Shown here: in pieces, positions 29,306-30,909 of the stretch
How positions within the stretch are numbered: the first letter of the stretch is position 1
How the letters are laid out: the number at the start of each line of letters is the position of its first letter
Assembly (NCBI GenBank): GCA_027031765.1
Contig: JALVPN010000165.1
Coordinates: 7,993 to 71,992, forward strand
Direction of reading: 5' to 3'
From: Promethearchaeota archaeon
GTDB taxonomy: Archaea > Asgardarchaeota > Thorarchaeia > Thorarchaeales > Thorarchaeaceae
DNA length: 64,000 bases
Program-made: the position numbers and the translations under genes
The notes under the pieces: generated by a model
Told to the model about the DNA's origin: nothing
The model's input: only the letters and a program-made list of their open reading frames with translations
Databases searched by the model: none

Positions 29306-29320
29306 ATAATGTAAAATAAT
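29306..29320 (+). promoter_or_regulatory. Putative TATA box (TAAAATAAT) about 25 nt upstream of the GTPase start
   Basis: An AT-rich hexamer in an otherwise GC-rich intergenic region. The spacing is consistent with a leaderless or short-leader archaeal promoter. Confidence 0.3.
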
Positions 29321-29341: not shown

Positions 29342-29872
29342 ATGATGAGCTCCGACAGCAAGCAGTTCATTGTCCTCGTTGCCGGAGAGGGTGGCGTTGG
29401 GAAGAGCACCCTGATCAAGTACCTTCTGGAGGGTGTGTACATACCACAACGCCTTACGGTCGGCCTCAACGTAGAGACCTACACCCTCACCATTGACGGC
29501 CCGGAGTACCATCTCACAATCAGGGATGCTGGTGGCGAGGAGCGCTTCCGGTTCATGATGCCGATGTGGACGCGCGGTGCAAAGGGCGCACTGCTCGTGT
29601 TCGACCTGGGACGTTATCACACCTTCCTGCACCTGCCGGACTGGCTGGAGCTGATGCGTGACTCGCTGGCACCCAGTAGGATTCTGCTCGTCGGTGCCAA
29701 GTGCGATATCGGTGACGACCGTGAGGTGGACACGAGCGAGGCACATGATATTGTCGGCCGGTATGGGCTGGCTGGGTATGTCGAGACCAGCTCCATGATG
29801 GGGATTGGTGTCCGTGACGCATTCGAGATGCTCGTAAGGCGGATAGCCGCATCAGAGGGCCCCCCATCTTGA
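29342..29872 (+). CDS. Ras-superfamily small GTPase (Rab/Arf-like)
   Basis: G1 'GEGGVGKST', switch I Thr ('NVETYT'), G3 'DAGGEERF', G4 'GAKCD', G5 'ETSSM'. The 176-aa size is typical. Confidence 0.8.
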   Translation: MMSSDSKQFIVLVAGEGGVGKSTLIKYLLEGVYIPQRLTVGLNVETYTLTIDGPEYHLTIRDAGGEERFRFMMPMWTRGAKGALLVFDLGRYHTFLHLPDWLELMRDSLAPSRILLVGAKCDIGDDREVDTSEAHDIVGRYGLAGYVETSSMMGIGVRDAFEMLVRRIAASEGPPS

Positions 29873-29930
29873 GCCGTGGCTATGCTGGGCAATATGGTCA
29901 CTACAATGGAGCCGGACAGGTGCGTGGACG

Positions 29931-30182
29931 ATGAGCGAGTTGAAGACAATCCGTGTGTTCTGCAAGAGGTGTGGTGAGTGGTATGAGGAGTCAGTTGACA
30001 TGTCTGTTCTCTCGCAGTCGCATACGGGTGTGGTGTCGCTGGCCTTCGACCACGGTGACCATGTCCTGACGGTGTTCCTCGACTCTGACCTGTCAGTACG
30101 CGGCGAGTCGGTCGCAGACAAGGTCAAGGACGACAATCATGAGCCCACAAGAAAGGCCCTGGACTACTTTGACAGGTATTAG
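29931..30182 (+). CDS. Small CxxC protein downstream of the GTPase (possible GTPase partner)
   Basis: 'IRVFCKRCGEWY...TGVVSLAFDHGDHVLTVFLDSDLSV'. The beta-strand pattern is reminiscent of a Roadblock/LC7-like fold, but it is short. Confidence 0.35.
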   Translation: MSELKTIRVFCKRCGEWYEESVDMSVLSQSHTGVVSLAFDHGDHVLTVFLDSDLSVRGESVADKVKDDNHEPTRKALDYFDRY

Positions 30183-30909
30183 TGAAGACAAGGTGATTGA
30201 AGTGATGCAGGAATGGCTTTCCGTAATGTCCATTGACATAGTTTCGAACTATGTGGCAATTGTTGTCTGCACTTGGACGGCGCTTGTAATCGCAAGGCGT
30301 TGGCGTTCGGATAGGGATCCGCTCACGGCCTCGTTGGCCGTGGCGTTTGTACTGCAGTCTGCTGGCCTACTTGCCTCAATATTGTCCGAGGTGCTCCTAC
30401 GTCTGTCTGGTGACCACTATGCGGCTGGCATGTGGAGTCTCGTGTTTGTGGTCTCCTTCCTGTTGTCATTCCCTCCAGTAGCCTACTTCCATGCGGGCCT
30501 GTTCCACCCGCGCAACAAGTGGTACGTCCCAGTTGTGTCTTTTCTCTCTGGCTCTGGCGTTGCCCTCGCGACCACAGCTCCCGACTACTACAGCCCGCCG
30601 GCATCAGTACACGCCATCTTCCTCGCTGTCCTGCTCCTCGTATACCCGCCCATCGCCGTGAGCTGCATGAGGCTCGCGCCACTTGCCAGCAAGCGGCTTA
30701 CCCGGGTGAAATTCTGGACGGTCAGTGTATGGGCAGTGGCCCACTCTGCCGCGTACGTCCTGCTGGGCATACCTGAGATCTTCACGATTGCCGGAGTCGT
30801 TGTGGTCTCACTGTATGCAGGCAGTGCACTTGCACTCACGGCATCATATCTCACAGCCTATCTCGGATGGGTCATGCCCTCGTGGTTCCGGGCCCGCTTC
30901 AACAAGTGA
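30139..30909 (+). CDS. Seven-TM membrane protein
   Basis: Seven predicted TM helices. The start may be an internal Met at about 30205. Confidence 0.55.
   Translation: MSPQERPWTTLTGISEDKVIEVMQEWLSVMSIDIVSNYVAIVVCTWTALVIARRWRSDRDPLTASLAVAFVLQSAGLLASILSEVLLRLSGDHYAAGMWSLVFVVSFLLSFPPVAYFHAGLFHPRNKWYVPVVSFLSGSGVALATTAPDYYSPPASVHAIFLAVLLLVYPPIAVSCMRLAPLASKRLTRVKFWTVSVWAVAHSAAYVLLGIPEIFTIAGVVVVSLYAGSALALTASYLTAYLGWVMPSWFRARFNK

Follow-up and report, generated by a model that had tools for sequence, protein, structure and literature searches.

The genomes of Asgard archaea contain genes for dozens of Rab-like GTPases. These genes are generally not found in operons with genes for regulators, so that genome context gives no hint of the partners (PMC10933270). 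In addition, archaeal Rab-like proteins carry no lipid anchors and may reach membranes through protein-protein contacts (PMC4915359). Among bacteria, the actinobacterial conservon CvnA-D/mfp operon, in which a GTPase is encoded together with a membrane protein, has been described as resembling G-protein-coupled regulation (PMC4316618, PMC13015309).

An exception to the Asgard pattern was found in the window analysed here, a stretch of 64,000 nucleotides of a Promethearchaeota contig. Three co-directional ORFs (29342-29872, 176 aa; 29931-30182, 83 aa; and 30139-30909, 256 aa) supply a Rab-like GTPase with two specific candidates for partners, of which one is an integral membrane protein whose cytoplasmic face is conserved. 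We give about an even chance to the reading that the three genes form one operon encoding a dedicated, membrane-attached small-GTPase switch, belonging to a narrow Asgard group related to Thorarchaeota. The features of the locus are the following:

29306..29320, + strand: TATA-like, A/T-rich element ATAATGTAAAATAAT, read from the sequence, with its centre about 26 nt 5' of the GTPase ATG
29342..29872, + strand: Rab-like small GTPase of 176 aa (or possibly 175 aa, if translation begins at the second ATG), from Pfam/NCBIfam and PDB matches
29931..30182, + strand: cytosolic, zinc-ribbon-like protein of 83 aa
30190..30197, + strand: Shine-Dalgarno-like element AAGGTGAT, read from the sequence, 7 nt 5' of the conserved start codon of the membrane-protein gene
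30205..30909, + strand: seven-helix (7-TM) membrane protein, 234 aa when counted from the conserved Met (start of the longest ORF at 30139)

The first-pass annotation had placed a TATA-like element about 25 nt before the GTPase start, which corresponds well to the position of ATAATGTAAAATAAT. A near-identical counterpart, GATAATGTAAATAA, lies at an equal distance from the start in the closest relative, L001, and the element is not shared by the more distant loci. ATAATGTAAAATAAT is a candidate archaeal promoter that would give rise to a leaderless transcript. The same annotation had the membrane-protein gene overlapping the end of the small gene. However, all homologues of the membrane protein align from Met23 (ATG at 30205), one of the database gene calls likewise gives a protein of 234 aa, and a Shine-Dalgarno-like GGTGAT precedes the gene in the window, where AAGGTGAT may function as a Shine-Dalgarno element. 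A start at this ATG leaves a 22-nt gap after the small gene, and the overlap was not confirmed. Scans of the window for tRNAs and Rfam families gave no matches, and no paralogue of any of the three genes was detected within it.

By its sequence, the product of the first gene belongs to the Ras family and is a Rab-like GTPase. It matched the Pfam Ras family with an E-value of 4.9e-31 (107.9 bits, cutoff 21.6) and NCBIfam small_GTP with 6.7e-18 (65 bits, cutoff 42.5), and its best PDB matches were all Rabs (Rab18, Rab5, Rab2 and Rab11). Alignment to H-Ras and Rab11A confirmed every one of the five G-box motifs quoted in the first-pass annotation (GEGGVGKST, the Thr in LTVG, DAGGEE, AKCD and ETSSM), with the G1 P-loop GxxxxGK[ST], the switch I Thr and the G3 DxxG of the Ras superfamily in place. 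The catalytic Gln after DxxG is absent, with Glu at this position (DAGGEE) in all orthologues; since this change is common in other Asgard relatives, it characterises the subfamily and does not speak against membership of the family. The G4 motif, AKCD in the window and [A/T]KxD in general form, keeps the Lys and Asp and replaces the Asn of NKxD. Both the switch II Gln-to-Glu change and the AKxD motif were considered as signatures of the clade and rejected, as they are widespread among Asgard relatives. A further change affects the interswitch Trp of the effector-binding hydrophobic triad, just before DxxG, which is replaced by Arg in the window and by Lys or Met in orthologues; the change was present in every operon-linked GTPase covering the region and in none of about 60 other relatives listed. 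The C-terminus (...AASEGPPS) is short and without Cys, as in the orthologues, and the lack of a prenylation motif makes the protein Rab-like and not a bona fide Rab. Such an end fits the membrane access by protein-protein contacts proposed for archaeal Rab-like proteins (PMC4915359). All GTPase homologues with names came from Asgard archaea, except for one Bathyarchaeota entry; the earlier remark that small Ras-like GTPases are uncommon in archaea is thus misleading, given their abundance in the Asgard group (PMC10933270).

The third gene encodes a protein with seven hydrophobic segments, for which hydropathy and a very strong positive-inside pattern indicate an N-out/C-in topology. The four inner segments carry about 11 Lys plus Arg and the outer ones about 0.9, and a six-helix alternative would leave about 6 of these residues outside, so the seven helices proposed before are supported on these grounds. 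In the AlphaFold model (pLDDT 63), six long helices were well modelled and TM4 was poorly defined. Conservation is concentrated on the cytoplasmic face, in the segments RWxxDRDPLT, GLFxPRNKWYxP, APxAxxxxTxxKF and GWxMPxWxRxR; the 45 cytoplasmic positions hold 17 of the 33 invariant residues (p = 5e-6), and mean identity is 0.72 on this face, compared with 0.54 for the TM segments and 0.46 for the outer side, where the loops are variable and only 6-9 residues long. In addition, a Glu in TM2 is invariant. No known family was found for this protein in Pfam, NCBIfam or PDB sequences, with only a sub-threshold match to DUF5985 (E = 0.02).

These features recall receptor-coupled signalling, the reading of the first-pass annotation, in which the 7-TM protein would sense a ligand or a membrane cue and act as a GPCR-like exchange factor (GEF) for the GTPase, while the small protein modulates the cycle. 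Conservation in the present protein peaks where TM3 ends on the cytoplasmic side, in the loop between TM5 and TM6 and directly behind TM7, which are the positions at which GPCRs couple to G proteins. The seven N-out/C-in helices, the conserved cytoplasmic face and the linkage to a GTPase gene are also common to the trio and the eukaryotic GPCR/G-alpha system, and the invariant acidic residue in TM2 would fit as well. However, no sequence-profile relationship to GPCRs was detected: with seven members of the membrane-protein family as queries, no Pfam 7TM family matched at E<=10, and a profile search against PDB sequences gave 0 matches at the same threshold. GPCRs were the best structural matches of the model in Foldseek, but without any match at E<=0.001 and with TM-scores of only 0.45-0.55, for a low-confidence model in which TM4 is not modelled and against a database whose 7-TM entries are dominated by GPCRs. 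Moreover, the short, poorly conserved outer loops form no ligand-binding ectodomain, and the partner is a Rab-like small GTPase without the helical domain of G-alpha; no G-beta-like gene lies nearby and no G-beta-gamma accompanies the trio. We regard signalling of this kind as unlikely. Its fuller form, in which an Asgard 7-TM protein with a GPCR-like helix bundle would serve a Rab-like GTPase both as receptor and as exchange factor, aided by a zinc-ribbon adaptor, and would be either related to eukaryotic 7-TM/G-protein signalling or an independent invention, seems quite unlikely. If the membrane protein were GPCR-like and acted on the GTPase, the trio would bear on the origin of 7-TM/G-protein signalling.

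Alternatively, the 7-TM protein could be the effector, a transporter, channel or membrane enzyme switched by the GTPase, with the small protein as a co-factor. The invariant TM2 Glu and other conserved residues inside the helices would suit such an effector, as would outer loops too small for a sensor and the tight coupling of the small and membrane-protein genes. No transporter or enzyme family was matched, however, and conservation lies mainly in the cytoplasmic loops and not in the helix core. An internal 3+1+3 repeat of the SWEET/PQ-loop transporter type was rejected too, with an hhalign probability of 1%, close to that of column-shuffled controls. On balance, an effector role appears unlikely.

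The 83-aa protein had been taken as Roadblock-like and as a possible GAP/GEF-like partner of the GTPase, and neither proposal was supported. No Roadblock, longin or MglB fold was found, neither as an alpha/beta fold nor as a Robl_LC7 profile match; instead, the protein consists of a five-strand beta domain followed by a disordered linker and a conserved C-terminal ALDYFDRY. The CxxC noted in the first-pass annotation is present (C11/C14, in the turn between strands 1 and 2) and is accompanied by H41/H44 (HGDH) in the turn between strands 3 and 4, the four residues being invariant in 10 of 10 small-protein sequences. The two hairpin knuckles, each with two potential metal ligands, correspond to a zinc-ribbon-like C2H2 site, and zinc binding is the probable function predicted for it. 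The domain differs from zinc-ribbon domains in its C2H2 rather than C4 ligands and in the extra fifth strand, and no zinc-ribbon family in Pfam matched it.

No sign supporting a GAP- or GEF-like activity was seen. The invariant Arg57 was considered as an arginine finger and found unlikely to be one, as this residue and Asp51 are invariant throughout the domain family, including fusions to winged-helix and RadA-like domains with no GTPase nearby; its conservation in such GTPase-unlinked relatives points to a structural role. No association with GTPases was found for the distant relatives of the zinc domain, whose presence in proteins unrelated to GTPases suggests a general module. Neither partner family matched Pfam or NCBIfam, and no paper describing either of them was found.

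The three-gene order proved to be conserved, as the earlier annotation had suggested should be checked in related genomes. A GTPase, a protein of about 80 aa and a membrane protein of about 240 aa are encoded in this order on one strand at nine independent loci (the window, L001, L002, L003, L004, L010, L011, L019 and the distant L009), eight of them with the membrane gene, and with unrelated flanking genes in every case; L007 is cut by a contig end. A GTPase gene lies directly upstream of every member of the small-protein family on a long enough contig, and both partners are missing for the GTPases that come next in similarity, P0008 with 43% identity and P0019 with 46%. In each of the eight loci with both genes, 7-22 nt separate the small-gene stop from the membrane-gene start. 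The GTPase and small genes are 3 to 185 nt apart, a variation that would allow for separate promoters in some of the genomes. Two loci contain a split or frameshifted gene, which may be a sign of decay or an error of the assembly.

Very few genomes carry the trio (10 clusters, and three close loci plus the distant L008 among 185,579 species genomes), so that it looks like a module specific to a lineage and does not represent a solution common to Asgard archaea or one of their ancestral features. As the loci all belong to a single, fairly narrow lineage, part of the gene order may simply be inherited, and the genes could be neighbours by descent only, without shared function. We consider this very unlikely, because the trio has stayed intact at identities of 46-66% for the GTPase and the small protein and 29-44% for the membrane protein, with every flanking gene changed, and because the arrangement recurs at the much more distant L009.

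For the membrane protein of L009, homology to the core family was not demonstrated, its hmmsearch score falling within the shuffled range and its hhalign probability being 20%. Its agreement with the core family is restricted to a C-terminal LGWxxP motif and the operon position.

The patchy, narrow distribution and the variable flanks could also be expected of a cassette of the mobile or defence type, with the GTPase as a sensor that sets off an effector disrupting the membrane, and toxin-antitoxin or restriction-type genes do flank two of the loci (PIN/VapB and NYN in L001, GmrSD in L004). However, PADLOC gave no significant match for any of the three proteins, housekeeping or transport genes flank the window and other loci, and neither an integrase nor other signs of mobile elements were seen. 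Typical small pore-forming effectors are, moreover, unlike a seven-helix protein whose cytoplasmic face is conserved. A cassette of this type is highly improbable.

In the membrane-attached switch that we favour, the three genes would be co-transcribed, and the 7-TM protein would sit in the membrane with its N-terminus outside, offering as a platform a basic, conserved cytoplasmic face made up of three loops and the C-terminal tail. The zinc-ribbon-like protein, made in tight coupling with it, would bind this face through its beta domain and/or the C-terminal LDYFDRY, as an adaptor or regulator. The GTPase, which lacks a prenylation site, an amphipathic helix and a polybasic tail, would be recruited to the platform according to its nucleotide state, and the altered interswitch position (Trp to Arg, Lys or Met) may be part of a specialised interface. 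The pair of 7-TM and zinc-ribbon-like proteins would replace the lipid anchors and membrane receptors of eukaryotic Rabs and provide the switch with a defined membrane address. The trio is thus a testable candidate for the way in which GTPases without lipid anchors reach membranes, and the naming of candidate partners makes direct experiments on binding, membrane recruitment, nucleotide exchange and hydrolysis possible.

Eukaryotic small GTPases have integral membrane receptors or anchors such as Yip1/PRA1 for Rabs, Sec12 for Sar1 and the SR-alpha/SR-beta pair. The likeness of the trio to these systems is one of analogy only, an integral membrane protein addressing or activating a small GTPase, as no sequence or fold relationship to any of these families was detected. 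MglA/MglB and Rag/Ragulator-type pairs of a GTPase and a Roadblock protein share with the trio a small GTPase encoded beside a small dedicated partner. In the conservon/mfp operon, as in the trio, the genes for a membrane protein and a small Ras-superfamily GTPase stand together with those for small accessory proteins (PMC4316618, PMC13015309). In the conservon, however, these are a membrane histidine kinase, Roadblock/MglB and DUF742 accessories and an MglA-type GTPase, in contrast to the 7-TM protein without kinase, the zinc-ribbon-like beta accessory and the Rab-like GTPase of the trio. Pfam and NCBIfam searches revealed no kinase, Roadblock or DUF742 domain in the trio, and its likeness to the conservon and Mgl systems is one of organisation only. 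The closest relatives of the GTPase itself are other Asgard Rab-like GTPases, among them the crystallised Thor-Rab (PMC10933270), which also belong to the Ras/Rab family and have a short C-terminus without a prenylatable Cys; dozens of them share its GEGGVGK[ST] P-loop, GGEE/GGQx switch II and AKxD G4 motif. In contrast to these relatives, whose genes are generally not linked to those of regulators (PMC10933270), the trio GTPases carry Arg, Lys or Met in place of the interswitch Trp and form a clade locked in an operon with two partners.

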